The translations under genes were made by a program, and so were the position numbers. This document shows positions 3,650 to 40,882 of a stretch of 64,000 nucleotides of DNA, piece by piece. Below the pieces are notes generated by a model. The model did not search any database, was not told the origin of the DNA, and saw only the letters and a list, made by a program, of their open reading frames with translations. Within the stretch, counting starts at the first letter, position 1; each line of letters begins with the position of its first letter. Source of the stretch: an uncultured Christensenellaceae bacterium (lineage in GTDB: Bacteria > Bacillota > Clostridia > Christensenellales > Borkfalkiaceae); assembly GCA_910586985.1 (NCBI GenBank), contig CAJUKK010000012.1, positions 5,377-69,376 on the forward strand, in the 5' to 3' direction.

Positions 3650-4465
3650 CTACCGTAATTTTTGTTTTAATCTTATAACCGTATTTGCACCAACTCCGAT
3701 ATCCGCCAAATACCCTTCGATCCCGCCGCGCATTCCGATCGCATCGAAAAAGGAGCTCAGCTTTCGTTCGCGAACCTCCCGCCGCGTTTCCCCGACTGCA
3801 CGGTACGAAAGACAAAAATCATCCTTTACCCGCTCGTCGCTCGCGCCTGCGAGCAAGAGCAAAATCGCGGCGATTACGCCCGTTCTGTCCTTTCCCGCGC
3901 CGCAACCAAAGAGCGCGCAGCCTTGCGCCGCAGCAAGCTCGACCAACGCTCTCTGCGTTCCTTCACTCTCCGCAAGTTCGCGATAATCGCATTGCGGATC
4001 GCCGCTTAAAGGACACTGAATTGGGGATATCTCCGACTCTTCCTCTTTCCGTTCGCTTTCCTCCCGCAAATCGACAAAGACGTTTACTCCGTAATTTCGG
4101 AGCAATTTAACGTCTTCTCTGTCCGTAGGAAAATCCGAACGCAAAAAAACGTTGTAGCGCGTAAAAAATTTTTCGCCGTAACGAATACCCCCGAGTTCTC
4201 TGCAATTTTTCGCAAAAGAAAGCGGAATACGCCTTGCTCCGTATTTTGCCGTAACGCGCTTTAACAGAGATATTTGATAGGGCGCGCCCTTCTCTTCCGC
4301 CCGCAAAACCTTTTCGACGCGGGCAAGCTGTAAACGGTTATGAGAACCGACGGGGGCAAGCACGCGGTCTCCCTCGCTCAGATCCCCGTCGCACAAGTAC
4401 CAATATACCCGTTCCGCAATATTTTCATCCTCCGTAAAACGGAGCAGCGCAAAATCGAACGGCAT
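3650..4465 (-). CDS. Two-domain protein: small N-terminal WYL..GDRVLxPVG domain fused to a protein-tyrosine-phosphatase-like domain
   Basis: ORF 3650..4510 trimmed to Met16 (MPFDF) so that it abuts the upstream stop. The C-terminal half carries RSD...VDLR and the CX5R P-loop CGAGKDRTG. The N-terminal ~90 aa is paralogous to the 82-aa protein at 59827..60075. Confidence 0.7.
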   Translation of the reverse strand: MPFDFALLRFTEDENIAERVYWYLCDGDLSEGDRVLAPVGSHNRLQLARVEKVLRAEEKGAPYQISLLKRVTAKYGARRIPLSFAKNCRELGGIRYGEKFFTRYNVFLRSDFPTDREDVKLLRNYGVNVFVDLREESERKEEESEISPIQCPLSGDPQCDYRELAESEGTQRALVELAAAQGCALFGCGAGKDRTGVIAAILLLLAGASDERVKDDFCLSYRAVGETRREVRERKLSSFFDAIGMRGGIEGYLADIGVGANTVIRLKQKLR

Positions 4466-11224: not shown

Positions 11225-11434
11225 TCACTGCAAGAAAAGAATGTAATTTGCATCCAGATCGAGCAGACGGCATAAATTGGCAAACGTGTCGAACGCGGGC
11301 ATCTTGCACCGCCGCACGTAGCTGGAAACAGCCTGCTGACTGACACCGATCTTTTTTGCGATCTTCGTTTGACTCATTCCGCTGTGTATTATTTCTTCCG
11401 CCAACCTCTCCTGAATCTGTTCGAGCGTTACCAT
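11225..11434 (-). CDS. Small XRE-family HTH protein (type a, copy 1)
   Basis: 69 aa, a single HTH domain (MSQTKIAKKIGVSQQAVSSYV) with tail LCRLLDLDANYILFLQ. Paralog of 12476..12688. SD GAGGGGGG upstream. Confidence 0.85.
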   Translation of the reverse strand: MVTLEQIQERLAEEIIHSGMSQTKIAKKIGVSQQAVSSYVRRCKMPAFDTFANLCRLLDLDANYILFLQ

Positions 11435-11469
11435 ATCCCCCCCCTCGATAAGTTTATATTAATATTTTA

Positions 11470-11540
11470 CTATGATTGGCTGATAAAAACTTGACTAAAA
11501 CCATTGGTTGTATTATAATATCGACAACCGATAATTGTGG
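11470..11540 (+). promoter_or_regulatory. Divergent control region: consensus-like promoter with a palindrome in its spacer, plus flanking related sites
   Basis: TTGACT (11491-96), a 17-nt spacer, then TATAAT (11514-19). The perfect palindrome AACCATTGGTT (11499-11509) lies inside the spacer. Related sites are ATGATTGG (~11472) and AATTGTGG (11533-40), each about 30 bp away. Confidence 0.55.
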
Positions 11541-11577
11541 CCGCAAAATACGAAAATATTACAAAAAGAGGAAAGCT

Positions 11578-11853
11578 ATGGAACAACAGATAGGAAACTG
11601 TTCCCGTTGCATGTATTTCGACCGTTATTTTGTAAAAAAAGCGACGACTTTTCAAAGCACTTCGATCGGATGGTGCGAAGTAAAAAAAGAGATCGTAAAA
11701 TCGCGCGACAGTTGCGAGGAATGCAAAAAAAGACAGTTGCGAAGAACATCCTATCACGCGCTGATACTTCATTTGAACGACCTTTTAACGGAAATCAGCG
11801 AAGTAAAAGGTATATTAGAGGACGTCGATTATGAAAGCAGACACCTGCTTTAA
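11578..11853 (+). CDS. 4-Cys mini-protein, type A, copy 1 (zinc-ribbon-like plus C-terminal amphipathic helix)
   Basis: ORF 11476..11853 trimmed to the ATG at 11578, preceded by AAAGAGGAAAG. 91 aa with Cys at 8, 11, 33, 46 and 49, and tail LNDLLTEISEVKGILED. Paralog of 13226..13507. Confidence 0.7.
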   Translation: MEQQIGNCSRCMYFDRYFVKKATTFQSTSIGWCEVKKEIVKSRDSCEECKKRQLRRTSYHALILHLNDLLTEISEVKGILEDVDYESRHLL

Positions 11854-12067
11854 TTGCAGTTATTGCCGACGAATGTACAGACGTTTGTGGTATCGCTACA
11901 TACGCATACAAGGTTTTTACTGTACCCGATCGAAGGAAATGATCGACCGGAAAACCCCTTGCGAAAAATATAAACCGCGGGGAGAAGAATACGACCTTTC
12001 GGACGAGAGATTCGAGAAGGTCGAAAACGATATTCGGGCGATGTTGGAATATTTTAAAAAAGAATAA
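11831..12067 (+). CDS. 4-Cys mini-protein, type B, copy 1
   Basis: 78 aa, overlapping the type-A gene by 23 nt, with a GAGGA SD. Cys at 6, 9, 12, 31 and 44 (C-x12-C-E-K-Y). Helical tail ERFEKVENDIRAMLEYF. Paralog of 13479..13724. Confidence 0.65.
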   Translation: MKADTCFNCSYCRRMYRRLWYRYIRIQGFYCTRSKEMIDRKTPCEKYKPRGEEYDLSDERFEKVENDIRAMLEYFKKE

Positions 12068-12070
12068 GAA

Positions 12071-12108
12071 AGAGCGACCGGCGCGTAAACGCGCCGGTCG
12101 CTCTTTTA
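12071..12108. terminator. Bidirectional hairpin terminator
   Basis: Perfect 15-bp stem AGAGCGACCGGCGCG / CGCGCCGGTCGCTCT with a TAAA loop and a T-run, between convergent genes. Confidence 0.7.
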
Positions 12109-12309
12109 TATATCTTGGTTTAACAATTCATCTAAAGTTACCCCGTAATATTCGGCTAAAATGATACAATCTTCTACGTTCGGAATCACTTTTCCCGTCT
12201 CCCAACGACTGATGCTTGCGTTACTGATTCCCGTATCCTTTTCCACTTGTAATAAGGTTTTATTGCTAAGCAATCTTTGCGCTCTCATGGCATTGCCGAT
12301 ATTTTTCAT
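12106..12309 (-). CDS. Small XRE-family HTH protein (type b, copy 1)
   Basis: 67 aa, LLQVEKDTGISNASISRWETGKVIPNV. Same subtype as 12897..13100. Confidence 0.85.
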   Translation of the reverse strand: MKNIGNAMRAQRLLSNKTLLQVEKDTGISNASISRWETGKVIPNVEDCIILAEYYGVTLDELLNQDI

Positions 12310-12354
12310 AAGTATCCCTTTAAACTATATTGCAACGTGATAGTTTATGCTGGA

Positions 12355-12435
12355 TTTTACAGATAACGTCTGTAAAAATAAAATACCACAGACAATATCT
12401 GTAAGTCAAGCATTTTACAGATATTCCCTGTAAAA
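12355..12435. promoter_or_regulatory. Three operator-like inverted repeats between divergent HTH genes
   Basis: TTTTACAGAtaacgTCTGTAAAA (12355-77), ACAGAcaataTCTGT (12388-402) and TTTTACAGatattcCCTGTAAAA (12413-35). Confidence 0.6.
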
Positions 12436-12475
12436 TTATTTAAAAAACTTTTTCAAATTATAGGAAGAAAACGAC

Positions 12476-12688
12476 ATGATAACACTTGATCAGATACAAA
12501 TCCGCATAGCCGAAAGTATAAAGCAAAGCAACATGACACAAACCGCAATTGCAAATGCGTTGAATATTAAGCAACAAACCATCGCCTGCTATCTTGCGGG
12601 AAAAGCTATGCCCGCGCTCGACACATTGTCAAACCTTTGCAAACTTTTAGACCTCGATGCAAACTACATTCTATGCTTAACAGATTAA
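12476..12688 (+). CDS. Small XRE-family HTH protein (type a, copy 2)
   Basis: 70 aa, MTQTAIANALNIKQQTIACYL...LCKLLDLDANYILCLTD. Clear paralog of 11225..11434. Confidence 0.85.
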   Translation: MITLDQIQIRIAESIKQSNMTQTAIANALNIKQQTIACYLAGKAMPALDTLSNLCKLLDLDANYILCLTD

Positions 12689-12722
12689 AACGGGCGAGCG
12701 CAAATGCGCTCGCCCGTTTTGT
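12689..12722 (+). terminator. Intrinsic terminator
   Basis: ACGGGCGAGCGC-AAAT-GCGCTCGCCCGT followed by TTTT, immediately after the stop codon. Confidence 0.7.
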
Positions 12723-12896
12723 TAAATATTCAGAAAATAATCACAACTTAAATCCACATTTATGGACAATCCGATTTAATTGCAAATAATTTTCTACAAT
12801 TTTGCAGAATGCAAGCAAAATCAATCGGCTTTTATTATAATTCTTTTTGAGTTATCAAACTGATAATTTCCGTAATTTAAAATATCGCATTTAAAA

Positions 12897-13100
12897 TCAA
12901 TTATTTAAATCAAGGATATAGTCGGTTGTAACTCCAAAATACTGCGCCAATTTTATTAAAACCGCCACACTTGGCACTCTTTGTCCACTTTCCCAATACT
13001 GAATTGCACTTTTACTAAACCCCGTTTCTGTTGCAAGTTCGGTTATTGTCACCTTTCTTTCTTCTCGTAATTCTTTTAAGCGAACCAAGTAAACTTTCAT
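12897..13100 (-). CDS. Small XRE-family HTH protein (type b, copy 2)
   Basis: 67 aa, ITELATETGFSKSAIQYWESGQRVPSV. No SD upstream. Two TAAAAT hexamers lie directly in front of the ATG, so the mRNA may be leaderless. Confidence 0.8.
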   Translation of the reverse strand: MKVYLVRLKELREERKVTITELATETGFSKSAIQYWESGQRVPSVAVLIKLAQYFGVTTDYILDLNN

Positions 13101-13112
13101 ATTTTAATTTTA

Positions 13113-13191
13113 CCACAATTATGACAAAATAGCTTGACAAACCACCATTGTGGGTGACATGTTAACAAACACCACAATTGTGGTCTAACAA
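13113..13191. promoter_or_regulatory. Operator triplet and candidate promoter for the second Cys-protein pair
   Basis: Three related 12-mers: CCACAATTATGA (13113-24), CCACCATTGTGG (13142-53) and the perfect palindrome CCACAATTGTGG (13172-83), spaced 29 and 30 bp apart. The last lies between TTAACA (13162-67) and TAACAA (13186-91). Confidence 0.5.
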
Positions 13192-13225
13192 TTACCGCAA
13201 ATCTTAAAAAAAGAGGAAAAAAATA

Positions 13226-13507
13226 ATGGAAAACCATCCCAACAGATGCAGCAGATGTCGATTTTTCGACAGATACTACACCAAAGAAACAAAAAAGTTC
13301 CGCCGTACCGAATGCGGCTGGTGCCGGAAAAAACAAGAGCTTGTAAGCACGCACGGTGAATGCGAAAAATATTCGGCGCGTACGCGCCGATGCATGCCCC
13401 AACGCGCACTCTACCTTCAACTAAACGACCTTTTAACTGAAATTTCCGAAATCCGAAATTTTTTGGAGGACAACAAACTTGAAGGCGAAGACAACAAAAC
13501 TCTGTAA
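13226..13507 (+). CDS. 4-Cys mini-protein, type A, copy 2
   Basis: 93 aa. CSRCRFFDRYY...CGWC...C-x12-CEKY and LNDLLTEISEIRNFLED. AGAGGA SD. Confidence 0.7.
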   Translation: MENHPNRCSRCRFFDRYYTKETKKFRRTECGWCRKKQELVSTHGECEKYSARTRRCMPQRALYLQLNDLLTEISEIRNFLEDNKLEGEDNKTL

Positions 13508-13724
13508 AGACTGCAACTTCTGTAAACGGGCATACAAGAGGATCTGGTGCGAATATTACACGAAAAAACGGTATCTATGCACCCTCGGCGACCGTTTGAC
13601 CCTGCGCGAAAATTCCTGCGACAATTGGCAGAAAAAAGAGCTCGACTACGACCTATCGCAAAAAAGATTCGACGATATCGAAAAGGATATCCGCCGTCTT
13701 TTGGATCGGCTTTCTAAAATATAA
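13479..13724 (+). CDS. 4-Cys mini-protein, type B, copy 2
   Basis: 81 aa with a TTG start 8 nt after GGAGGA, overlapping the type-A gene by 29 nt. CKDCNFC...C-x12-CDNW. Tail KRFDDIEKDIRRLLDRL. Confidence 0.6.
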   Translation: MKAKTTKLCKDCNFCKRAYKRIWCEYYTKKRYLCTLGDRLTLRENSCDNWQKKELDYDLSQKRFDDIEKDIRRLLDRLSKI

Positions 13725-13783: not shown

Positions 13784-14443
13784 TTAATATTCTGCGCCGT
13801 ACTCTTTTAAATATGCGCGCATAGCGGGGAGATATTCCTTACCCTCGATTACGCCCGCCTCGATCGCCTCGATAATGTCCTGCACGGTGACGATGGAATA
13901 TACTTTAACGCCGAAGTTATCGAGCGCCTCTTGTACGGCGGACTTTTCGCCCGTGCCTTTTTCCTGACGGTCGACGGAGATGATCATCGCCTCTACGTCT
14001 ACGTTTGCCTCCGCCTCGAGCTTGGGCAGAATTTCGCGCAGAGCTTTGCCCGAAGTCATTACGTCCTCGATAATGGCTACCTTATCCCCTTCTAAAAGCT
14101 GCTGACCGACGAACATACCGCCCTCGCCGTGATCCTTTACCTCTTTGCGGTCGAAACAGAAACCCACGTCTACCCCGTGGTTTTTTGCAAGCGCGATCGC
14201 CGTTGCAACGGCAAGCGGAATGCCCTTGTACGCCGGCCCGACGAGCGTTTTCACGTTTAATTTATGTTCGAGATAGCACTCCGCGTAATATTCGCCGAGC
14301 TGCATGATCTGCGAACCCGTTCTATACTTGCCCGCATTCATAAAATACGGCGCTTTCCTGCCGCTTTTCAGCGTAAACTCGCCAAAGAGCAGCACTTCGT
14401 TTTCCACCATGAATTTGATAAAGCGTTGTTTGTAAGTAAGCAT
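13784..14443 (-). CDS. pyrE: Orotate phosphoribosyltransferase
   Basis: 219 aa. FGEFTLKSGRKAPYFMNAG and PRPP-binding loop VAIIEDVMTSGKA. Confidence 0.92.
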   Translation of the reverse strand: MLTYKQRFIKFMVENEVLLFGEFTLKSGRKAPYFMNAGKYRTGSQIMQLGEYYAECYLEHKLNVKTLVGPAYKGIPLAVATAIALAKNHGVDVGFCFDRKEVKDHGEGGMFVGQQLLEGDKVAIIEDVMTSGKALREILPKLEAEANVDVEAMIISVDRQEKGTGEKSAVQEALDNFGVKVYSIVTVQDIIEAIEAGVIEGKEYLPAMRAYLKEYGAEY

Positions 14444-16253: not shown

Positions 16254-17152
16254 ATTTCCCCCAAAACCGACAGAAGATCGGCTTTCATATCGAGGCACGC
16301 CTGACGCGCCGCATCGTAGTATGTTCCGCCGCGCTTGAGATAGGAGCAGAGGATTCCGCGGGAATTGTTTACGATCCCGCCGAGTCCGTTTTTATCAAAG
16401 CAGTTTTTGAGCATTTCGGCGTTCGCGCCCTGCGCGCCGTATCCGGGGACAAGGAAGAAGGTATGCGCAAGACGCGCGCGGAGCACCTTCGCCTCCTCGG
16501 GATAGGTTGCGCCTACGACCGCGCCGACCGCCGAATATCCGTATTTGCCGACGGTGTCCTCGCCCCACTTTTCCACCATGTCGCCCATGCACTCGTACAC
16601 GGCGCGCCCGTCGGCAAGTTTTAAGTTCTGAAGTTCGCCCGAGGAGGGATTGCTCGTTTTGACGAGTACGAAAATCCCTTTGTCGCGCGCTTTGCAAAGA
16701 TCGGTAAAGGGTACGATCCCGTCCGAACCGAGATATCCGTTTACCGTAAGATAGTCGCAGGGGTATGCCTCCTCCGCGTTGCCATTTACGCAGGTCTCGC
16801 CGAGAAACGCCGCGCCGTAGCGGGAGGCGGTCGCGCCGATGTCGTTGCGCTTAGCGTCGGTAATCACGATAAGTCCCTTTTCCTTCGCATATTCGCAGGT
16901 CTTTTTAAACGCCTTCATGCCCGCTCTGCCGTACTGTTCGTAATAGGCGATCTGCACTTTGACGCAGGGTACGATATCGTGTACGCTGTCGATGATCTTT
17001 TTGTTAAATTCGAGAACGGCCTTCGCCGCGCCCTTAAAGTCCTCTACGCCCTCTCTCATATCTTCGGGCAGATAGTCGAACGACGTATCCAGTCCCACCG
17101 CCGTGGGATTCTGTTTTGCGATAATTTGCTCGATAAGCGCGTCGGTGATCAT
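16241..17152 (-). CDS. pyrF: Orotidine-5-phosphate decarboxylase (long, type 2)
   Basis: 303 aa with VGLD, DAKRNDIG and operon context. Confidence 0.88.
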   Translation of the reverse strand: MITDALIEQIIAKQNPTAVGLDTSFDYLPEDMREGVEDFKGAAKAVLEFNKKIIDSVHDIVPCVKVQIAYYEQYGRAGMKAFKKTCEYAKEKGLIVITDAKRNDIGATASRYGAAFLGETCVNGNAEEAYPCDYLTVNGYLGSDGIVPFTDLCKARDKGIFVLVKTSNPSSGELQNLKLADGRAVYECMGDMVEKWGEDTVGKYGYSAVGAVVGATYPEEAKVLRARLAHTFFLVPGYGAQGANAEMLKNCFDKNGLGGIVNNSRGILCSYLKRGGTYYDAARQACLDMKADLLSVLGEICAK

Positions 17153-18414
17153 TTTCTCTTCTCCTCGTATTTAATTTCGCCGTCGACGACGGTATATTTG
17201 ACTCTTCCGTAAACTTTCACGCCCGTAAACGGCGTGTTTTTGCCCTTGCTCACAAATTCGTCGGGATCGATCGTCCATTCCTCGTTCAGGTCCGCAAACG
17301 TGAGATCGGCAGGCGCGCCGACTTCGATTTTCCCGCCCTTTAAACTCAAAATTTCCGCGGGCGTCGCGCTCATTTTTTCGGCAAGCTGCGGGAGCGTCAG
17401 CTCTCCGCTCTTTACAAGCGCGGTATACGAGAGCGCGAACGAAGTTTCGAGTCCGCTGATCCCGAACGCCGCCAAGTTGTATTCCACGTTCTTATCGTCG
17501 GCATGGTGCGGCGCGTGATCGGTTACGATGCAGTCGAGCGTGCCGTCCTTTAACCCCTCGATCACCGCAAGCCTGTCCTTTTCCGCACGGAGGGGCGGAT
17601 TGACCTTGGTGTTCGTATCAAATTCTTTGATCGCCTCGTCGGTAAGCGTAAAATAATGCGGGCAGGTTTCGGCAGTCACTCTGACCCCGCGCGCCTTCGC
17701 CTCGCGGATGAGCTGGATTCCGCTGTACGTTGAAACGTGGCAGATATGCACGGGAAGATCCAGACTCTCCGCAAGGCATATCTCCCGCGCGATGATAATG
17801 TCCTCCGCCGCGCGGATACTGCCCTTGAGCCCCGTGAGCGTGGAATAATACCCCTCGTTGACGACCCCGCCGTCTACGAGTTCCCTGTCCTCGCAATGGC
17901 ACAGGCATTTGAGTCCGAAGTCGGAGGCGTACTGCATGGCAAGCGACATGATCTTTGTCGAGGGAACGCTCTTTCCGTCCTCGCTGAGCGCGACCGCGCC
18001 CGCATGCTTCATGCCGCCGATCGCCGCAAGCTCCTGCCCTTCCTGCCCTTTGGTGATCGCGCCTACGGGGTGGATTTTACAGAGGTTGACCTCCTTTTCC
18101 CGCGCCTTTATATAGGTTACGACCACTTTATTGTCGATCACGGGCGAGGTATTGGGCATACAGCAAATCTGCGTAAAACCGCCCTTGACCGCGGCGCGCG
18201 CGCCGCTTTCGATATTCTCTTTTTTTTCAAACCCCGGTTCGCGGAGATGCACGTGGATGTCGACGAGTCCCGCAAGCGCGGTGAGTCCCGCGCAGTCGAG
18301 AACTTCGCCCCCGCTCAGATTTTCGCCGATTTCGGCAATGAGTCCGTTTTCCGTTCTGATATCGACCTTTTTCACTTCGCCGCCGATAACGGCTTGCGCG
18401 TTTTTGAAAATCAT
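17149..18414 (-). CDS. pyrC: Dihydroorotase
   Basis: 421 aa with metal motif DIHVHLREPG and DHAPH. 4-nt overlaps on both sides. Confidence 0.92.
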   Translation of the reverse strand: MIFKNAQAVIGGEVKKVDIRTENGLIAEIGENLSGGEVLDCAGLTALAGLVDIHVHLREPGFEKKENIESGARAAVKGGFTQICCMPNTSPVIDNKVVVTYIKAREKEVNLCKIHPVGAITKGQEGQELAAIGGMKHAGAVALSEDGKSVPSTKIMSLAMQYASDFGLKCLCHCEDRELVDGGVVNEGYYSTLTGLKGSIRAAEDIIIAREICLAESLDLPVHICHVSTYSGIQLIREAKARGVRVTAETCPHYFTLTDEAIKEFDTNTKVNPPLRAEKDRLAVIEGLKDGTLDCIVTDHAPHHADDKNVEYNLAAFGISGLETSFALSYTALVKSGELTLPQLAEKMSATPAEILSLKGGKIEVGAPADLTFADLNEEWTIDPDEFVSKGKNTPFTGVKVYGRVKYTVVDGEIKYEEKRK

Positions 18415-19337
18415 GCCCTTGCCTCCTGATCGTTAAGAAGTTTTAACACCGACATTCTTACGGCTACGCCCGAGAGCACCTGATCCTCGATCCGGCTGCT
18501 TGCCCCGTCGATCAGCGAACAGGTAAGCTCCACCCCGCGGTTGACGGGTCCGGGGTGCATGACGATCGCGTTCGGTTTTGCGTACTTAATCACCTCTTCG
18601 TTTACGCCGTAGAATTTCGCGTATTCGCCGAGCGAGGGAAAGAGTCCCCCGTGCTGACGCTCGAGCTGGATTCTGAGACCCATTACGACGTCCGCCCCAT
18701 CCACTGCCTCCTCGCGCGAGGCGCATACCTTTGCGCCCATCTTGTCAAAATCGGCGGGAATGAGCGTTCGGGGAGCGAACACGCTGACTTCCGCGCCCAG
18801 CTTTTTAAGACCGAACAGGTTGCTCTTGGCTACGCGGGAGTGGCGGATATCGCCTAGGATCGCAACTTTTAACCCCTTGACCGCCCCGAACGTTTCGCGC
18901 ATGGTGAGCATGTCCAAGAGCGCCTGCGTGGGGTGTTCGTTCATGCCGTCGCCCCCGTTGATCACGTGCGCCTTTACCGTTTTGCCGAGCAATTTGGGCG
19001 CGCCGCCCATGGGGTGGCGAATGATAATAAAGTCGTTCCGCATCGCATCCAGCGTCTTGCCCGTATCGACGAGCGTTTCGCCCTTTTGCACGGAGGAGGA
19101 CGCCGCCGAAATATTCACTACGTGCGCCCCGAGATATTTTGCCGCAAGTTCGAAACTGCACCGCGTCCGCGTGCTGTTTTCGTAAAAGAGCGTGGTTACC
19201 GCCCTGCCCGTTAAATCGGGCAGATTTTTTACGCCCGAGCGGAGCTTTTGTTTCATCTCCGCCGCAACGCAAAGTATCTCGTCGATCTCCTCTGCGGAGA
19301 GCTCGTAAAGTCCCGTTACGTCTTTTTGTCTCAGCAT
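18411..19337 (-). CDS. pyrB: Aspartate carbamoyltransferase catalytic subunit
   Basis: Trimmed to Met24 (MLRQKDV), preceded by AAGGAG. Motifs ENSTRTRCSFE, HPTQALLD and HPGPVNRG. Confidence 0.92.
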   Translation of the reverse strand: MLRQKDVTGLYELSAEEIDEILCVAAEMKQKLRSGVKNLPDLTGRAVTTLFYENSTRTRCSFELAAKYLGAHVVNISAASSSVQKGETLVDTGKTLDAMRNDFIIIRHPMGGAPKLLGKTVKAHVINGGDGMNEHPTQALLDMLTMRETFGAVKGLKVAILGDIRHSRVAKSNLFGLKKLGAEVSVFAPRTLIPADFDKMGAKVCASREEAVDGADVVMGLRIQLERQHGGLFPSLGEYAKFYGVNEEVIKYAKPNAIVMHPGPVNRGVELTCSLIDGASSRIEDQVLSGVAVRMSVLKLLNDQEARA

Positions 19338-19360
19338 GCTTTCTCCTTTGGTGCGGACGG

Positions 19361-19397
19361 ATAAAAAAATAAGCCTTGCGGGCAATGCCGCATGGCT
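19361..19397 (-). terminator. Leader terminator (attenuator) directly upstream of the pyrB SD
   Basis: Minus-sense AGCCAUGCGGCAUUGCCCGCAAGGCU hairpin followed by UAUUUUUUUAU, ending ~12 nt before the pyrB SD (AAGGAG) and ~24 nt before the ATG. Confidence 0.6.
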
Positions 19398-19472
19398 GAA
19401 AATCACCTTAAAATCAGATGATACCGCGCTGTGAGCGCAGGCGTTTTAAACGCCATCCGTTTTACCTTTATG

Positions 19473-19501
19473 ATTATAGCATATCTGAAAAGCAAAGTAA
19501 A
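19473..19501 (-). promoter_or_regulatory. Candidate pyr promoter
   Basis: Minus strand reads TTTACT, a 17-nt spacer, then TGcTATAAT (extended -10), implying a leader of roughly 130 nt. Confidence 0.4.
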
Positions 19502-19507
19502 GCTTTT

Positions 19508-20203
19508 TTAATAAATTTGCACGAGAGAAAATTTAACTTTATCGCACGAAGTGAGGCGATACTCGATTCTGCCCTTTTCAAAGCGGAAGGGATAGTAATA
19601 AGATCCGTGCAAATGACCGAACACCACCTTGTTTACCCCGTTTTTTTCGAACAGCTCGGTAAACAGCGTGTCCTCCCCCTTGACGGTGCAGGGCGGATAG
19701 TGCATGAGCGCGATCAGAATATCACCCTCCTCGCGTACCTTTTCCGCCGCCTGAAAGGCAAGCTTAAACCGCTCCGCCTCGCGAAGATATATCGCCATGT
19801 CGTGCTCGCCGAAGTCCGAACTGCCGGGGCACGCCCAGCCGCGCGATCCCGCAACAATCACGTTGCCGAATTTGACGCAATCGTTTTGCAGAAAGGTAAA
19901 ACTGCCATCCGCTGCGGCGTTCCGCACCCGCGTGATGCCGTTCCACCAATAGTCGTGATTGCCGCGGACGAATACCTTCCGCCCCGCAAGCGGAGCAAGA
20001 GAGTTTACGTCGAACATGCCTTCTTCGAGCTTTTGCCCCCAGGAGGTGTCGCCGCCGATGAGAACGATATCGTCGTCCGTCACTTTTTCGCGCCAATCGT
20101 TTTTTATTTTTTCGAAGTGCCCTTCCCACCCCGCGCCGAAGATATCCATCGGCTTGGGATTGCATCCCGAAAGGTGCAGATCGCTGATCGCGAATACTTT
20201 CAT
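19508..20203 (-). CDS. Metallophosphoesterase (calcineurin-like)
   Basis: MKVFAISDLHLS, GGDTSW, GNHDYWW and GHLHG motifs. ATG at 20203 preferred over the TTG at 20209. No SD, and a TGcTATACT -10-like element ends 7 nt upstream. Confidence 0.85.
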   Translation of the reverse strand: MKVFAISDLHLSGCNPKPMDIFGAGWEGHFEKIKNDWREKVTDDDIVLIGGDTSWGQKLEEGMFDVNSLAPLAGRKVFVRGNHDYWWNGITRVRNAAADGSFTFLQNDCVKFGNVIVAGSRGWACPGSSDFGEHDMAIYLREAERFKLAFQAAEKVREEGDILIALMHYPPCTVKGEDTLFTELFEKNGVNKVVFGHLHGSYYYPFRFEKGRIEYRLTSCDKVKFSLVQIY

Positions 20204-20253
20204 GGACAAAGTATAGCATATTTTCGCTCGGTTGGCAAGGGATAAACCGAGCG

Positions 20254-20538
20254 TTACGGGGCGATTTTTAGGATTGCTTTGAGTTCAGAAAATTCGTTTT
20301 CCATGCGCTCGACCGCGTATTCGACGACGCGCTTGTATTTTTGCAGGGGCGAGCTCTGCTCTTCCCACTCTTCGCAGCCGTTGGGAAAGGGAAAACGGGC
20401 GTAATCTTTTTTGAGTATATTGCGCTTTAAGCACTTTCCGCAATGGGCGCTGCGCAATCTCATGCTTTCGTCAAAGTAGTAGTGTCGTAAAAAATGTTTG
20501 CACGCGGTACAGCTGTTGATTTGTTTGATTTCTTGCAT
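20254..20538 (-). CDS. 4-Cys mini-protein, type C, copy 1
   Basis: 94 aa. CTACKHFLRHYYFD...CGKC...GCEEWEE. C-terminal half identical to copy 2 apart from one residue near the end. Confidence 0.7.
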   Translation of the reverse strand: MQEIKQINSCTACKHFLRHYYFDESMRLRSAHCGKCLKRNILKKDYARFPFPNGCEEWEEQSSPLQKYKRVVEYAVERMENEFSELKAILKIAP

Positions 20539-20551
20539 ATTTACTCCTCTT

Positions 20552-20618
20552 TACACGTTTTGTGTATATATTTTATTACACATTTCGTGTAATGTCAAGC
20601 AATTATCCACAAAATGTG
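20552..20618. promoter_or_regulatory. Operator-like inverted repeats between Cys-C1 and its divergent HTH gene
   Basis: TACACgttttGTGTA (20552-66), TTACACatttcGTGTAA (20576-92) and CACAaaaTGTG (20608-18). TGtTAGATT lies 6 nt before the HTH ATG and there is no SD. Confidence 0.55.
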
Positions 20619-20631
20619 TTAGATTGTATTT

Positions 20632-20832
20632 ATGAATATTGGAGAAAGATTGCGGTATTTACGTTTGGGAAGAGGTTTTACACAAAAAGACGTAGCGACA
20701 GGGATAGGATTAACGGTTAGTGCATATTCAAATTATGAGAATAATCTCCGCGAACCGTCCATAGAAATTATTAAAAAACTTTGCGCCTATTATCAAGTTA
20801 CCGCAGATTATTTGTTGGGACTTGAAGATTGA
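20632..20832 (+). CDS. Small XRE-family HTH protein (type c, copy 1)
   Basis: 66 aa, FTQKDVATGIGLTVSAYSNYENNLREPS...ADYLLGLED. Confidence 0.85.
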   Translation: MNIGERLRYLRLGRGFTQKDVATGIGLTVSAYSNYENNLREPSIEIIKKLCAYYQVTADYLLGLED

Positions 20833-20865
20833 AAGGTGCAGATCGCTGATTGCGAATACTTTCAT
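20831..20865 (-). pseudogene. Duplicated 5-prime stub of the metallophosphoesterase gene (first ~11 codons, MKVFAISDLHL)
   Basis: ATG at 20865 corresponds to 20203 plus 662. The reading frame leaves the homologous sequence at the duplication junction. Confidence 0.8.
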
Positions 20866-20915
20866 AGACAAAGTATAGCATATTTTCGCTCGGTTGGTAA
20901 GGGATAAACCGAGCG

Positions 20916-21200
20916 TTACGGGTCGATTTTTAAGATCGCTTTGAGTTCCGAAAATTCGTTTTCCATGCGCTCGACCGCGTATTCGACGACGCGCTTGTAT
21001 TTTTGCAGGGGCGAGCTCTGCTCTTCCCACTCTTCGCAGCCGTTAGGAAAGGGAAAACGGGTGTAATCTTTTTTGAGTATATTGTGCTTTAAACATTTAC
21101 CGCAACTCGCGGCCCGCAGTTTCATATTTTCGTCAAAGTAATAGTGTTGTAAAAAATATCTGCACGCGGTACAGCCGTTGTTTGTTTTATTATTCGACAT
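20916..21200 (-). CDS. 4-Cys mini-protein, type C, copy 2
   Basis: ORF trimmed to Met20 (MSNNKTNNGCTAC), preceded by AGGAG. 94 aa. Confidence 0.7.
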   Translation of the reverse strand: MSNNKTNNGCTACRYFLQHYYFDENMKLRAASCGKCLKHNILKKDYTRFPFPNGCEEWEEQSSPLQKYKRVVEYAVERMENEFSELKAILKIDP

Positions 21201-21219
21201 AAAAACTCCTAATATTTTC

Positions 21220-21280
21220 AATACTAGTATTATATACTCTATTATAGAGTACGTCAAGGATTTTACCCTGTTTTAGAGTA
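21220..21280. promoter_or_regulatory. Operator-like repeats between Cys-C2 and its HTH gene (sequence differs from copy 1)
   Basis: Palindrome AATACTAGTATT (21220-31), inverted repeat TACTCTattatAGAGTA (21235-51), and an extra AGAGTA half-site (21275-80). Confidence 0.5.
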
Positions 21281-21290
21281 TCCTTATCTC

Positions 21291-21488
21291 ATGTACGGCA
21301 AAATATTACGAGATTTAAGAGTTGAACGAAATTTATCACAACAACAACTTGCAGATATTTTAGGCACAACACAAAAAACTATCAGCAAATACGAATTGGA
21401 AGATTTAGATTTAAGCACTGACATGGTTGTAAGTATCTGCAAATATTTTGGTGTCACCGCAGGCTATTTATTGGGACTTGAAGATTGA
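21291..21488 (+). CDS. Small XRE-family HTH protein (type d, copy 1)
   Basis: 65 aa, LSQQQLADILGTTQKTISKYELEDLD...AGYLLGLED. Confidence 0.85.
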   Translation: MYGKILRDLRVERNLSQQQLADILGTTQKTISKYELEDLDLSTDMVVSICKYFGVTAGYLLGLED

Positions 21489-21515
21489 AAGGAACGCCCC
21501 CGCGTTCCTTTTTTG
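21489..21515 (+). terminator. Intrinsic terminator
   Basis: AAGGAACGC-CCCC-GCGTTCCTT followed by TTTT. Confidence 0.7.
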
Positions 21516-21537
21516 TGTGTCTTCAATGCAGATAATT

Positions 21538-21570
21538 GCGCACTCCATATTGGAGTGCGCAGTGTTTTTT
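21538..21570 (+). terminator. Second hairpin with T-run
   Basis: Perfect 10-bp stem GCGCACTCCA / TGGAGTGCGC followed by AGTGTTTTTT. Confidence 0.6.
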
Positions 21571-21596
21571 ACCCTGTTTTAGCGTACTCTTATTTT

Positions 21597-21797
21597 ATGT
21601 ACGGAAAAATATTGCGGGAATTAAGGCTTGAACGGGATCTGTCGCAACAACAGCTCGCCGATATTTTAGGCACAACGCAAAAGACAATCAGCAAATACGA
21701 ATTGGAGTATTTGGATTTAAGCACCGAAATGATCATAACCATATGTAAATACTTTGGTGTGACCGCAGACTATTTATTGGGACTTGAAGAAGATTAA
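21597..21797 (+). CDS. Small XRE-family HTH protein (type d, copy 2)
   Basis: ORF trimmed to Met29 (MYGKILRELRLERD). Close paralog of 21291..21488, including ~25 nt of upstream sequence. Confidence 0.75.
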   Translation: MYGKILRELRLERDLSQQQLADILGTTQKTISKYELEYLDLSTEMIITICKYFGVTADYLLGLEED

Positions 21798-21816
21798 AAA
21801 AACTTTTTATTCTTTA

Positions 21817-21854
21817 TAAAAATCGCGCCGTTCGGGAAAACGGCGCGATTTTTA
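21817..21854. terminator. Bidirectional terminator
   Basis: AAAAATCGCGCCG-loop-CGGCGCGATTTTT, flanked by A-run and T-run. Confidence 0.7.
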
Positions 21855-21863
21855 TAAACTTTA

Positions 21864-22649
21864 TTATTCCCCGCTGTGATCGAACACGACCATCCATGCG
21901 CCCTTAAAGATAATCTTTAAGTCCAGCCAGACGCTCTGCCGTTCGATATAGTCGAGATCGAGCTGTACCCAATCGTCGAACAACAGCGCATTACGGTTTT
22001 TTTGAATCTGCCAAAGGCATAAAAGTCCGCCCTTGATTAAAAGACGCTGTTTTTGCTCCTCCGTATACTGCTCCACCTCGTGCGGGATGGGCGGGCGGGG
22101 GCCGACGACGCTCATCGTCCCGTTAAAAATATTCCAGAGCTGGGGAAGCTCGTCGAGCGAGGATTTGCGCAAAAATTTTCCGAACCGTGTAATGCGCGGG
22201 TCGTTCTTCATTTTAAACGCAGGTCCGTCCGCCTCGTTCAGACCCTTGTCGATCAGCTCCTGTTTCATATTTTCTGCATGCTTGCACATGGTGCGGATTT
22301 TATAAAACTTAAAAACCTTTCCGTTTTTTCCAACGCGTTTGGAAACGTAAACGGGATTGTGGAAATCTTCGAGCCACTTGATCAGCAGGCATAACAGGAT
22401 AATCGGCGAAAGCAGAATGAGCATGATTCCCGAAGAAAAGATATCGAACGCGCGCTTGATAAACCGGTAACAAAAATACCGGAACCCGCGCTTTTTATTT
22501 ACGATACGCGGCTGTCTCTCCGCGATTTCTCCCGTAAGTTCTTCCGCCGTCTCCGCGTCTGCGCGCGGCTCTTTTGCAATCGGCGCGGCGGACTCGTGCG
22601 CCGTTTGGAGTTCGGTCTCCTCACTGCATACCGCCAACTCTTCGTTCAT
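21864..22649 (-). CDS. Undecaprenyl-phosphate sugar phosphotransferase (bacterial sugar transferase family)
   Basis: TM segment followed by FKFYKIRTM, DELPQLWNIF and MSVVGPRP motifs. Confidence 0.85.
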   Translation of the reverse strand: MNEELAVCSEETELQTAHESAAPIAKEPRADAETAEELTGEIAERQPRIVNKKRGFRYFCYRFIKRAFDIFSSGIMLILLSPIILLCLLIKWLEDFHNPVYVSKRVGKNGKVFKFYKIRTMCKHAENMKQELIDKGLNEADGPAFKMKNDPRITRFGKFLRKSSLDELPQLWNIFNGTMSVVGPRPPIPHEVEQYTEEQKQRLLIKGGLLCLWQIQKNRNALLFDDWVQLDLDYIERQSVWLDLKIIFKGAWMVVFDHSGE

Positions 22650-22733
22650 GCGATTCCCCTCTCGTTTCGTCTGTAATGTATTCCCCGTACCAGCATGATT
22701 GCCAAAATCAGGCGATTTATATCATGCAAAAAA

Positions 22734-40805: not shown

Positions 40806-40882
40806 GCACTCGTAGCGCAATTGGATAGCGTGTCAGCCTCCGACGCTGAAGGTTGTGAGTTCGATCCTCGCCGGGTGCACCA
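40806..40882 (+). tRNA. tRNA-Arg (anticodon CCG), CCA encoded
   Basis: Hand-folded cloverleaf: acceptor GCACTCG/CGGGTGC, D arm GCGC-AATTGGATA-GCGT, anticodon stem TCAGC/GCTGA with loop CTCCGAC, T arm GTGAG-TTCGATC-CTCGC, discriminator A, then CCA. Confidence 0.9.

Follow-up and report, generated by a model that had tools for sequence, protein, structure and literature searches.

Why should two adjacent gene pairs be almost the same at one end and unrelated at the other? The question is raised by positions 20169-21797 of the window, by which the whole analysed stretch of 64,000 nucleotides (nt) of an uncultured Christensenellaceae bacterium (contig CAJUKK010000012.1) is meant. Two units, 20169-20830 and 20831-21492, stand here as a head-to-tail pair, and in each of them a gene for an XRE helix-turn-helix (HTH) protein is divergent from a gene for a cysteine-rich (Cys) protein. 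In the preliminary description each unit carried a 94-residue Cys gene on the minus strand and a divergent XRE gene of 65-66 residues on the plus strand, and the gene calls agree. The genes are called Cys1 and HTH1 in unit 1 and Cys2 and HTH2 in unit 2; a third HTH gene, HTH3 (21597-21797), is part of the same structure and lies outside the two units. The explanation that accounts best for the whole, held with moderate confidence, is that a sugar-transferase gene and the phosphoesterase-pyr genes are separated here by a regulatory cassette that varies among strains.

The identity of the two units was profiled along their length. A repeat finder returned 20169-20468 against 20831-21130 (300 nt, 92% identical, spacing 662). 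The ungapped profile gave 250/260 identical positions with no indels for 20169-20428, in accordance with the roughly ten substitutions counted earlier by eye, and 89/120 (about 74%) for 20429-20548, so that the left arm of unit 1 (20169-20548) matches its partner (20831-21210) at 339/380. The longest identical stretch common to both units is 95 nt (20288-20382). By feature, the 5' end of the phosphoesterase gene and the spacer are identical at 82/85 nt, the 3' half of the Cys gene at 139/144 and its 5' half at 111/141 (79%). At the protein level Cys1 and Cys2 are 83% identical; of their 16 differences all but one fall in residues 1-47, and the remaining one is in residues 48-94. The near-identical part had been assigned to these very features and the N-terminal half of the Cys protein had been called more diverged, and both statements stand. 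To the right of the arm, the intergenic/promoter region and the HTH gene show chance-level identity between the units, with several indels. Similarity returns at the 3' ends of the HTH genes, where 20797-20836 and 21453-21492 are identical at 36/40 positions at an offset of 656; the proteins HTH1 and HTH2 are 41% identical, as expected from the earlier remark that they are distantly similar until the 3' end. The exact 662-bp offset proposed for the units is right for the first approximately 380 nt and fails in the cores, which have indels. The similarity of the units is far beyond chance, while their promoter/operator and HTH cores, about 280 nt each, are unalignable as DNA and anciently diverged. 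With its abrupt boundaries the profile revealed a mosaic and not a uniform divergence, as had been suggested.

Strains were compared using same-species metagenome assemblies and metagenome-assembled genomes (MAGs) found via the Cys protein, all of them short-read. Seven MAG contigs (L001, L002, L004, L005, L007-L009) are 99.7-99.8% identical to the window over 19400-22700 and carry the full two-unit structure. Contigs L003 and L006 are 99.6-99.8% identical, lack exactly 662 nt and hold one Cys gene, HTH2 and HTH3; the copy-number variation for which a strain check had been recommended appears in these assemblies as the lack of one unit. Contigs L028-L033, which come from different assemblers (ENA and JGI), are 98.2% identical over 8.3 kb and contain two units with a period of 666 together with HTH3. 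In L010-L015 the flanks are 97.5-99.0% identical, and there is one Cys gene, whose protein occurs in 91 blocks of the collection, and no HTH gene; 168 nt of unrelated sequence lie between the sugar-transferase terminator and the Cys start. Alleles of the same species thus have 0, 2 or 3 HTH genes and 1 or 2 Cys genes, and at least four N-terminal types of Cys are present in the population. These structures indicate a polymorphic hotspot that reaches from the Cys 5' end on the left to the 21813-21858 terminator on the right.

Over 3301 nt, each two-unit strain departs from the window at 5-8 positions. All of these differences fall on ten sites that distinguish the arms, and the base is always switched to that of the other unit. 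L001, L004, L005 and L008 have the unit-1 base at five consecutive unit-2 sites (20898-20949), L002 and L007 have these five sites and also 20851 and 20866 switched, and L009 has the unit-2 base at eight unit-1 sites (20236-20423), a tract of at least 188 nt. HTH2 of L031 has the HTH1-type ending ...GIVED at its 3' end, the sole switch in the 40-nt HTH end, seen in one strain. The suggestion of recent gene conversion confined to one end is supported by these seven two-unit assemblies. Between Cys1 and Cys2, synonymous divergence (dS) is 0.60 in codons 1-47 and about four times lower, 0.156, in codons 48-94; nonsynonymous divergence (dN) falls likewise, from 0.195 to 0.009. The fall in dS points to homogenisation of the C-terminal half and not to purifying selection alone; this half is both homogenised and strongly constrained. 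The non-reciprocal switches indicate the pattern expected of ongoing gene conversion, or of short-read mis-phasing, and the form with the 662-nt deletion would be the expected outcome of unequal crossing-over within the arm. It is considered quite probable that the arms are kept alike by conversion and that the copy number is changed by unequal crossing-over, a view to be held less firmly if mis-phasing is common.

The cores contain the elements from which the regulation of the cassette may be read. The operators had been described as different in the two units, and the palindromes are indeed of the type TACAC-N5-GTGTA in unit 1, with two perfect copies (O1 and O2), and TACTCT-N5-AGAGTA in unit 2. 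The perfect palindromes span 15-17 bp, and two to three palindrome copies stand beside each HTH gene. The end of the candidate O3 adjoins or overlaps an extended -10-like element, TGTTAGATT, 6 nt before the ATG of HTH1; O3 is a positional candidate only, being not significant genome-wide (12 matches against 10.7 expected at two mismatches). Copies of the HTH2-type palindrome with one and two mismatches cover -10-like elements 11 nt before the starts of HTH2 and HTH3, respectively. An equivalent layout was found in at least ten other cassettes, including two at another place in the window (11225-13724), each with a different palindrome: TTGAC(A/T) is followed by a 15-17-bp palindrome peculiar to the locus, which fills the spacer before the -10 element, and the palindrome is present once more in a second copy. 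That palindrome and HTH change together in one cassette after another is the strongest evidence available here that the HTH protein represses the Cys promoter, and the HTH proteins would bind the palindromic operators as dimers.

One of the HTH-less contigs adds an observation on the palindromes. In L010 the 168 nt (3829-3996) upstream of the solo Cys gene, which is of type C, are unrelated to either intergenic region of the window, and they contain a perfect TTACAC-N5-GTGTAA and a near-perfect TACTCT-N5-cGAGTA, that is, the palindrome types of both HTH1 and HTH2. This suggests either repressors encoded elsewhere, which were not located, or relics of lost genes.

The three HTH proteins are bare XRE domains with no additional domain, and all score above the HTH_3 cut-off (gathering score) of 23 bits. 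HTH2 and HTH3 share 85% amino-acid identity and 81-83% DNA identity, the upstream operator included, and the predicted recognition-helix stretch TTQKTISKYE is identical in both. Their dS of 1.07 with a dN/dS of 0.06 indicates old paralogues that have both been maintained. Weak matches (E 5e-5 to 5e-4) were obtained with the PADLOC 'control protein' models. A Shine-Dalgarno sequence (GGAG) precedes the Cys genes but none of the HTH genes, and the HTH1 mRNA is probably leaderless.

In the mechanism proposed here, each HTH dimer would shut off the neighbouring Cys promoter from the operator in its -35/-10 spacer, and each HTH protein would also limit itself through a weaker site over its own, probably leaderless, promoter, with the Cys protein as the output of the cassette. 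The locus is likely to hold two independently gated copies of a near-identical small zinc/coiled-coil effector, each repressed by its own XRE protein in the promoter spacer. Several points weigh against this picture. The repression is deduced from geometry, the plus-strand promoters of the HTH genes are weak or non-canonical and were not called by a promoter scan, and the HTH-less strains retain both palindrome types upstream of Cys. The proposed function of the Cys protein draws on its composition and on a predicted fold without known relative. Furthermore, all the related sequences are short-read metagenome assemblies, and with identical stretches of up to 95 nt, mis-phasing or collapse could mimic both conversion and the one-unit form.

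How the two cores came to differ was considered next to the origin of the tandem. The hexamer GAAAGG occurs at 20169, where it falls within codons 10-12 of the phosphoesterase gene, at 21487, where it makes up the first half of the stem of the terminator that follows HTH2, and at 20831, where it fuses the HTH1 stop to the copied phosphoesterase promoter and first 35 nt of the gene. A single illegitimate join at this 6-nt microhomology made the tandem. The arms are 96% identical, and the cores are saturated. The favoured view is that the two cores were already different alleles of a hypervariable site when they were joined; alternatively one core was replaced later, or the duplication is very old and its arms have been continually homogenised. 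With a third, unrelated core known from the same species, the merging or replacement of alleles is the simpler reading. In the alternative of divergence in place, a single old tandem duplication has cores that diverged on site and arms kept alike by conversion, with no import or merging. It would fit the conversion between arms indicated by the strain comparison, the persistence of local duplicates to a dS of about 1 as in HTH2 and HTH3, and the intermediate dS of 0.6 in the N-terminal half of Cys, as expected if conversion decays with distance from the arm. Against it, HTH1 is no closer to HTH2 than to HTH proteins from cassettes of other species, and HTH2 and HTH3 have a closer relative in another species, being nearer to the HTH protein of cassette L016 (52-56%) than to HTH1 (41-46%). 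One species, moreover, holds unrelated alternative cores, the 168-bp HTH-less form being unlike both intergenic regions, and the identity boundaries are abrupt. Divergence in place is regarded as rather unlikely.

The preliminary description had also proposed that the zinc-binding half of Cys varies together with the HTH proteins and operators, as an interchangeable specificity or immunity module. In that case the HTH protein, the operators and the zinc half would form a co-adapted recognition set on a constant Cys helix scaffold, for example as a CI/Cro-like toggle or a specific anti-repressor. In the window most of the divergence of Cys is in its N-terminal half (15/47 residues, against 1/47 in the C-terminal half), this half is basic (+6/+7), which makes nucleic-acid binding plausible, the HTH proteins and operators do change together, and the several N-terminal types in the population would also suit such a set. 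The joint variation is not supported. In L028-L033 a core of HTH1 type, with operators of TACAC type, adjoins a Cys gene whose product is almost Cys2 in residues 8-47, and many strains, those of type C among them, have Cys without any HTH gene. The N-terminal dN/dS is 0.2-0.5 in most allele pairs, and this gives no sign of diversifying selection on the zinc half; values of about 0.8-1.2 occur only in three pairs involving type D and come from few changes, largely in the first 7 codons. The identity gradient is explained by conversion tracts that end differently among lineages, and the N-terminal divergence in the window is best read as marking where such tracts happen to end in this lineage. 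An immunity role is further disfavoured by the lack of phage or mobile-element context around the locus, and a pattern scan of IMG/VR viral contigs with the alignment A4 of CysL, a longer Cys paralogue, found no relative, the Cys1/Cys2 subtype not being in the query. A recognition set of this kind is unlikely.

It must also be asked whether expansion, collapse or mis-phasing of the approximately 380-nt repeat during assembly produced the duplication, the one-unit variants or the conversion tracts. The comparison sequences are all metagenome assemblies or MAGs, identical stretches of up to 95 nt are longer than many k-mers used in assembly, collapse would give exactly such one-unit contigs as L003 and L006, and bubble popping could give non-reciprocal switches. 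Expansion, however, cannot create unique cores of about 280 nt, and the two-unit order recurs in two lineages and in more than 13 independent assemblies made by different pipelines. The switched haplotypes recur across samples (L001/L004/L005/L008 and L002/L007), and the eight-site tract of L009 spans several k-mer lengths; these recurrent haplotypes and this tract argue against mis-phasing. An artefact is accordingly judged improbable.

The Cys proteins were analysed as members of a family. By its definition (alignment A2), to which Cys1 and Cys2 conform, the members have 76-97 residues, a C-x2-C motif with two more cysteines about 22 and 18 residues further on, and a C-terminal amphipathic helix. 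Among 72 family sequences C10, C13 and C55 are invariant and C36 is nearly so (at least 90%), and all four are invariant in the alignment of the seven sequences of the window; these four near-invariant cysteines suggest zinc binding. The charge is split along the protein, with a basic N-terminal part (+6 to +9) and a neutral or acidic C-terminal one, and the last 26 residues show the 3-4 hydrophobic spacing of a heptad helix. The AlphaFold model of Cys1, with a mean confidence (pLDDT) of 88.6, shows residues 16-36 as a beta-hairpin, then a short helix, and residues 64-89 as a long helix of 26 residues, while the first 7 residues form a low-confidence tail. A model of CysL has an equivalent beta-hairpin-plus-helix topology at low confidence (pLDDT 67). 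Two other roles were considered and rejected on general knowledge, a cysteine-rich peptide precursor on the basis of the well-folded model and the absence of a maturase gene nearby, and a rubredoxin-like redox protein on the basis of a cysteine spacing that does not fit.

A word-index search for homologues of Cys found merely 6 near-identical proteins, and the family was revealed by an HMMER profile search of 1.84 billion representatives, which gave 636 clusters (at 50% identity) with E<=1e-3, nearly all of 76-97 residues. None of the 10 source clusters whose names were looked up is named. No match to Pfam, NCBIfam, PHROG, PADLOC or toxin families was obtained for Cys1, Cys2 and the other Cys proteins of the window, and the Pfam scan of 72 members gave no common family, only five single-member chance matches. 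The best PDB profile match (E 0.25) was to a designed helix, and Foldseek of the Cys1 model reached at best E 1.1 against PDB and 0.13 against BFVD, with none at E<=0.001. A literature search returned nothing on the Cys family or on the cassette arrangement. In view of this lack of a family, structure or literature match, both the family and the stereotyped cassette appear to be undescribed. A scan of a genome collection with a narrow alignment gave 4 loci, the window's own species not among them.

The canonical cassette in gut metagenomes consists of an HTH gene on the minus strand followed by CysL and an overlapping shorter paralogue, CysS, both on the plus strand; the present locus belongs to a subtype that has one Cys gene and an FPFPNGCE insert. 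Of the family loci examined, namely L016-L027 and L034-L051, among which several duplicate one another, about three quarters have a divergent HTH gene, and intact Cys genes without adjacent HTH gene make up about a quarter to a third, to which the type C strains are added. The other family loci lie between housekeeping genes and are without integrases.

A toxin-antitoxin-like addiction module, in which the XRE protein restrains a toxic Cys protein, would account for the presence of several divergent copies per genome, the low G+C content, the presence/absence polymorphism and the strong repressor-covered promoter. The 64-kb window has at least five cassettes, with a G+C content of 36-44% where their surroundings have about 50-57%; the cassettes are set between housekeeping genes without integrases, and the HTH proteins give sub-threshold matches to antitoxin models. 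Such a module is nevertheless improbable, given that the genes are divergent and form no operon, the 65-66-residue HTH proteins have no extra domain for toxin binding, the matches are far under the curated cut-offs (score/cut-off: HipB 20.6/79, Y4mF 34.6/71.65, MqsA 28.7/61.8, HigA 25.8/47.7, PezA 34.3/290), PADLOC and toxin families gave no match, and intact, constrained Cys genes without adjacent HTH gene are common, their persistence in itself making a toxin role unlikely.

With the Cys protein retained as the output of a repressed cassette, its action may be outlined. It would be a dimeric regulator made of a basic zinc beta-hairpin followed by a heptad helix, and tentatively it may bind nucleic acid or another protein. 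The heptad helix is all but identical in Cys1 and Cys2, and heterodimers are therefore possible. More broadly, and as a speculative proposal, Cys could be the output of an undescribed, widespread class of miniature chromosomal switches in gut Clostridia, with a bare XRE repressor, a consensus promoter in which its operator serves as spacer, and one or two overlapping genes for small zinc/coiled-coil proteins (CysL and CysS) driven from it, in several mutually orthogonal copies per genome. Recombination at the present locus would then swap or stack inputs on a constant effector, and the zinc proteins would be new small dimeric regulators acting, for example, on RNA polymerase or on the phosphoesterase-pyr unit.

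The coordinates of the features are summarized in Table 1.

Table 1. Features of the two-unit locus, its flanks and the related cassettes at 11225-13724 (window positions)
Feature	Position	Strand	Details
Calcineurin-like metallophosphoesterase gene	19508..20203	-	Metallophos 58.6 bits; pyrB and pyrC downstream
Repeat unit 1	20169..20830		Phosphoesterase promoter and first 35 nt, spacer hairpin, Cys1, intergenic region 1, HTH1
Homogenised left arm, unit 1	20169..20548		Together with the partner arm, holds all variation of the locus between strains
Hairpin, 9-bp stem, CGCTCGGTT...AACCGAGCG	20225..20253		Between Cys1 stop and phosphoesterase promoter; without U-tract
Cys1	20254..20538	-	94 residues, allele type A; GAGGAG Shine-Dalgarno
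Candidate operator O1, TACACGTTTTGTGTA	20552..20566		Perfect palindrome directly downstream of Cys1 -10
Cys1 promoter	20570..20598	-	-35 TTGACA (20598-20593), 17-nt spacer, -10 TAAAAT (20575-20570); putative, 11/12 consensus
Candidate operator O2, TACACATTTCGTGTA	20577..20591		Perfect palindrome, fills Cys1 -35/-10 spacer
Candidate weak operator O3, TcCACAAAATGTGtT	20606..20620		TACAC-type, 2 symmetric mismatches
HTH1	20632..20832	+	66 residues, XRE/Cro-C1; HTH_3 (PF01381) 62.7 bits
Repeat unit 2	20831..21492		Non-functional copy of phosphoesterase promoter and first 35 nt, hairpin, Cys2, intergenic region 2, HTH2
Duplication junction	20831..20836		GAAAGG microhomology (6 nt); copies at 20169-20174 and 21487-21492
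Duplicated phosphoesterase promoter	20872..20900	-	TTACCA-17-TATACT
Cys2	20916..21200	-	94 residues, allele type B; AGGAG Shine-Dalgarno
Cys2 promoter	21229..21257	-	-35 TTGACG (21257-21252), 17-nt spacer, -10 TATAAT (21234-21229); putative, 11/12 consensus
Candidate operator TACTCTATTATAGAGTA	21235..21251		Perfect palindrome TACTCT-N5-AGAGTA, exactly the 17-nt spacer of the Cys2 promoter
Candidate operator TACCCTGTTTTAGAGTA	21264..21280		1 mismatch; overlaps -10-like TAGAGT 11 nt before HTH2 ATG
HTH2	21291..21488	+	65 residues, XRE; HTH_19 (PF12844) 54.9 bits, HTH_3 52.0 bits
Two terminator-like hairpins	21487..21563	+	21487-21512 and 21535-21563; between HTH2 and HTH3
Candidate operator TACCCTGTTTTAGCGTA	21570..21586		2 mismatches to HTH2-type palindrome; before HTH3
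HTH3	21597..21797	+	66 residues, XRE; HTH_3 56.5 bits
Bidirectional terminator	21813..21858		20-bp perfect hairpin, T-runs on both sides; right edge of variable region in all strains
Sugar-transferase gene	21864..22649	-	Bacterial sugar transferase, convergent; uses terminator 21813-21858 jointly
HTH, cassette 1 at 11225-13724	11225..11434	-	
CysL, cassette 1	~11578..11853	+	
CysS, cassette 1	11831..12067	+	
Additional HTH gene	12106..12309	-	
Additional HTH gene	12476..12688	+	
HTH, cassette 2 at 11225-13724	12897..13100	-	
CysL, cassette 2	13226..13507	+	
CysS, cassette 2	13479..13724	+	

The left flank of the locus is entered by the repeat itself. The start of the phosphoesterase gene is most likely the ATG at 20203 (231 residues, as called in related assemblies), and with this start the repeat carries the phosphoesterase promoter and the first 35 nt of the gene. 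The promoter (-35 TTGCCA at 20238-20233, -10 TATACT at 20215-20210) opens the repeat along with the 5' end of the gene. The spacer hairpin is duplicated at 20887-20915, and its 11-nt loop overlaps the phosphoesterase -35. Rfam, run over the whole 64-kb window at the gathering threshold, gave a single match, a tRNA at 40806-40879, and the conserved spacer hairpin is therefore no known RNA element. Cys1 has the same orientation as the phosphoesterase-pyrB unit and lies about 50 nt upstream of it, with no terminator-like site between them.

The duplication has also produced a chimeric open reading frame (ORF) of 46 residues at 20728-20865 on the minus strand, which consists of MKVFAISDLHLS and 34 further residues. 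It starts at 20865, is served by a duplicate of the phosphoesterase promoter and ribosome-binding region, with the promoter pointing into it, and runs wholly antisense to HTH1. From the anatomy of the duplicated promoter, convergent transcription across HTH1 would follow.

The region 11225-13724, the first of the two cassette loci in the window, holds two canonical HTH(-)/CysL(+)/overlapping CysS(+) cassettes of the same Cys family. Its G+C content is 36-44% against about 55% around it, and each cassette has its own palindrome in a TTGAC(A/T)...TATAAT promoter. The two cassette loci flank minus-strand pyrimidine genes, namely a pyrE-like gene (13784-14443), pyrC (17149-18414) and pyrB (18411-19406). 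The HTH proteins of CysL/CysS cassettes (L020, L038, L039, L042, L046 and window 11225-11434 and 12476-12688) form a conserved subfamily of their own with the consensus MITLEQI..RLAEAI.QSGMTQTEIA.KLGI.Q..IS.YL.GK.MPALDTLANLCK.LD.DANYILC, distinct from the type of HTH1-3. Such a distinct subfamily indicates that repressor subfamily and Cys subtype are inherited together across species. A 1048-nt contig from a gut metagenome (L034, ERZ778504) encodes a CysL 100% identical to that of window 13226-13507, with matching HTH and CysS neighbours, and a copy of its intergenic palindrome is one base off, AACCACAATTGTGGGT against AACCACCATTGTGGGT in the window.

If the reading of the locus as a strain-variable regulatory cassette is true, it offers a clean natural example of concerted evolution at a very small scale. 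Between strains 3.3 kb would be otherwise identical, the only polymorphisms being exchanges between two 380-nt arms, with the repressor/operator core staying distinct and alleles with 0, 2 or 3 repressors occurring in one species. An unannotated four-cysteine family of about 90 residues, common in gut Clostridia, with stereotyped regulation and no known fold relative, would be a reasonable functional target, and cassettes with distinct 15-17-bp spacer palindromes would be candidate orthogonal repressor/promoter pairs for Clostridia. Repressor/operator cassettes and the concerted evolution of duplicates are both of already known kinds, and existing concepts are not overturned by any of these findings.

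Among known systems, the controller (C) proteins of restriction-modification systems and other bare XRE regulators resemble HTH1-3 in size, in fold and in having spaced palindromes over promoters. Unlike genes for C proteins, the HTH genes are divergent and not upstream in an operon, and the architecture implies repression and not activation; no restriction endonuclease or methyltransferase genes are found within several kb on either side. Antitoxins of the MqsA type likewise link a zinc-binding CxxC module with an XRE HTH. Here, by contrast, the zinc module and the HTH are separate divergent genes with no MqsR-like toxin, and the MqsA score quoted above, below its cut-off, is that of HTH2.

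A likeness of layout is also found in the immunity regions of lambdoid and other temperate phages (CI/Cro with the OR operators, or CI/MOR of TP901-1). As here, they have divergent promoters and a short intergenic region with two to three palindromic operator copies, the strongest operator lies over the non-repressor promoter and a weaker one over the repressor's own, the repressor mRNA is probably leaderless, and repressor and operator are exchanged as a unit between strains. The present cassette differs in its bare 65-residue HTH repressor, which has no oligomerisation or peptidase domain, and in its partner, which is a four-cysteine zinc protein of an unnamed family and not an HTH protein. 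Prophage and mobile-element genes are absent nearby, the flanks being the sugar transferase, the phosphoesterase and pyrB/pyrC.

Concerted evolution by gene conversion is known from tufA/tufB in Salmonella and from the opa and pilS cassettes in Neisseria. These systems and the present locus share non-reciprocal transfer, tracts of tens to hundreds of nt, homogenised segments next to diverged ones, and a copy number altered by unequal crossing-over. In contrast to them, homogenisation here extends over non-coding DNA and the dead remnant of a gene, what stays diverged is a repressor with its operator, and the units of only 662 nt are directly adjacent.

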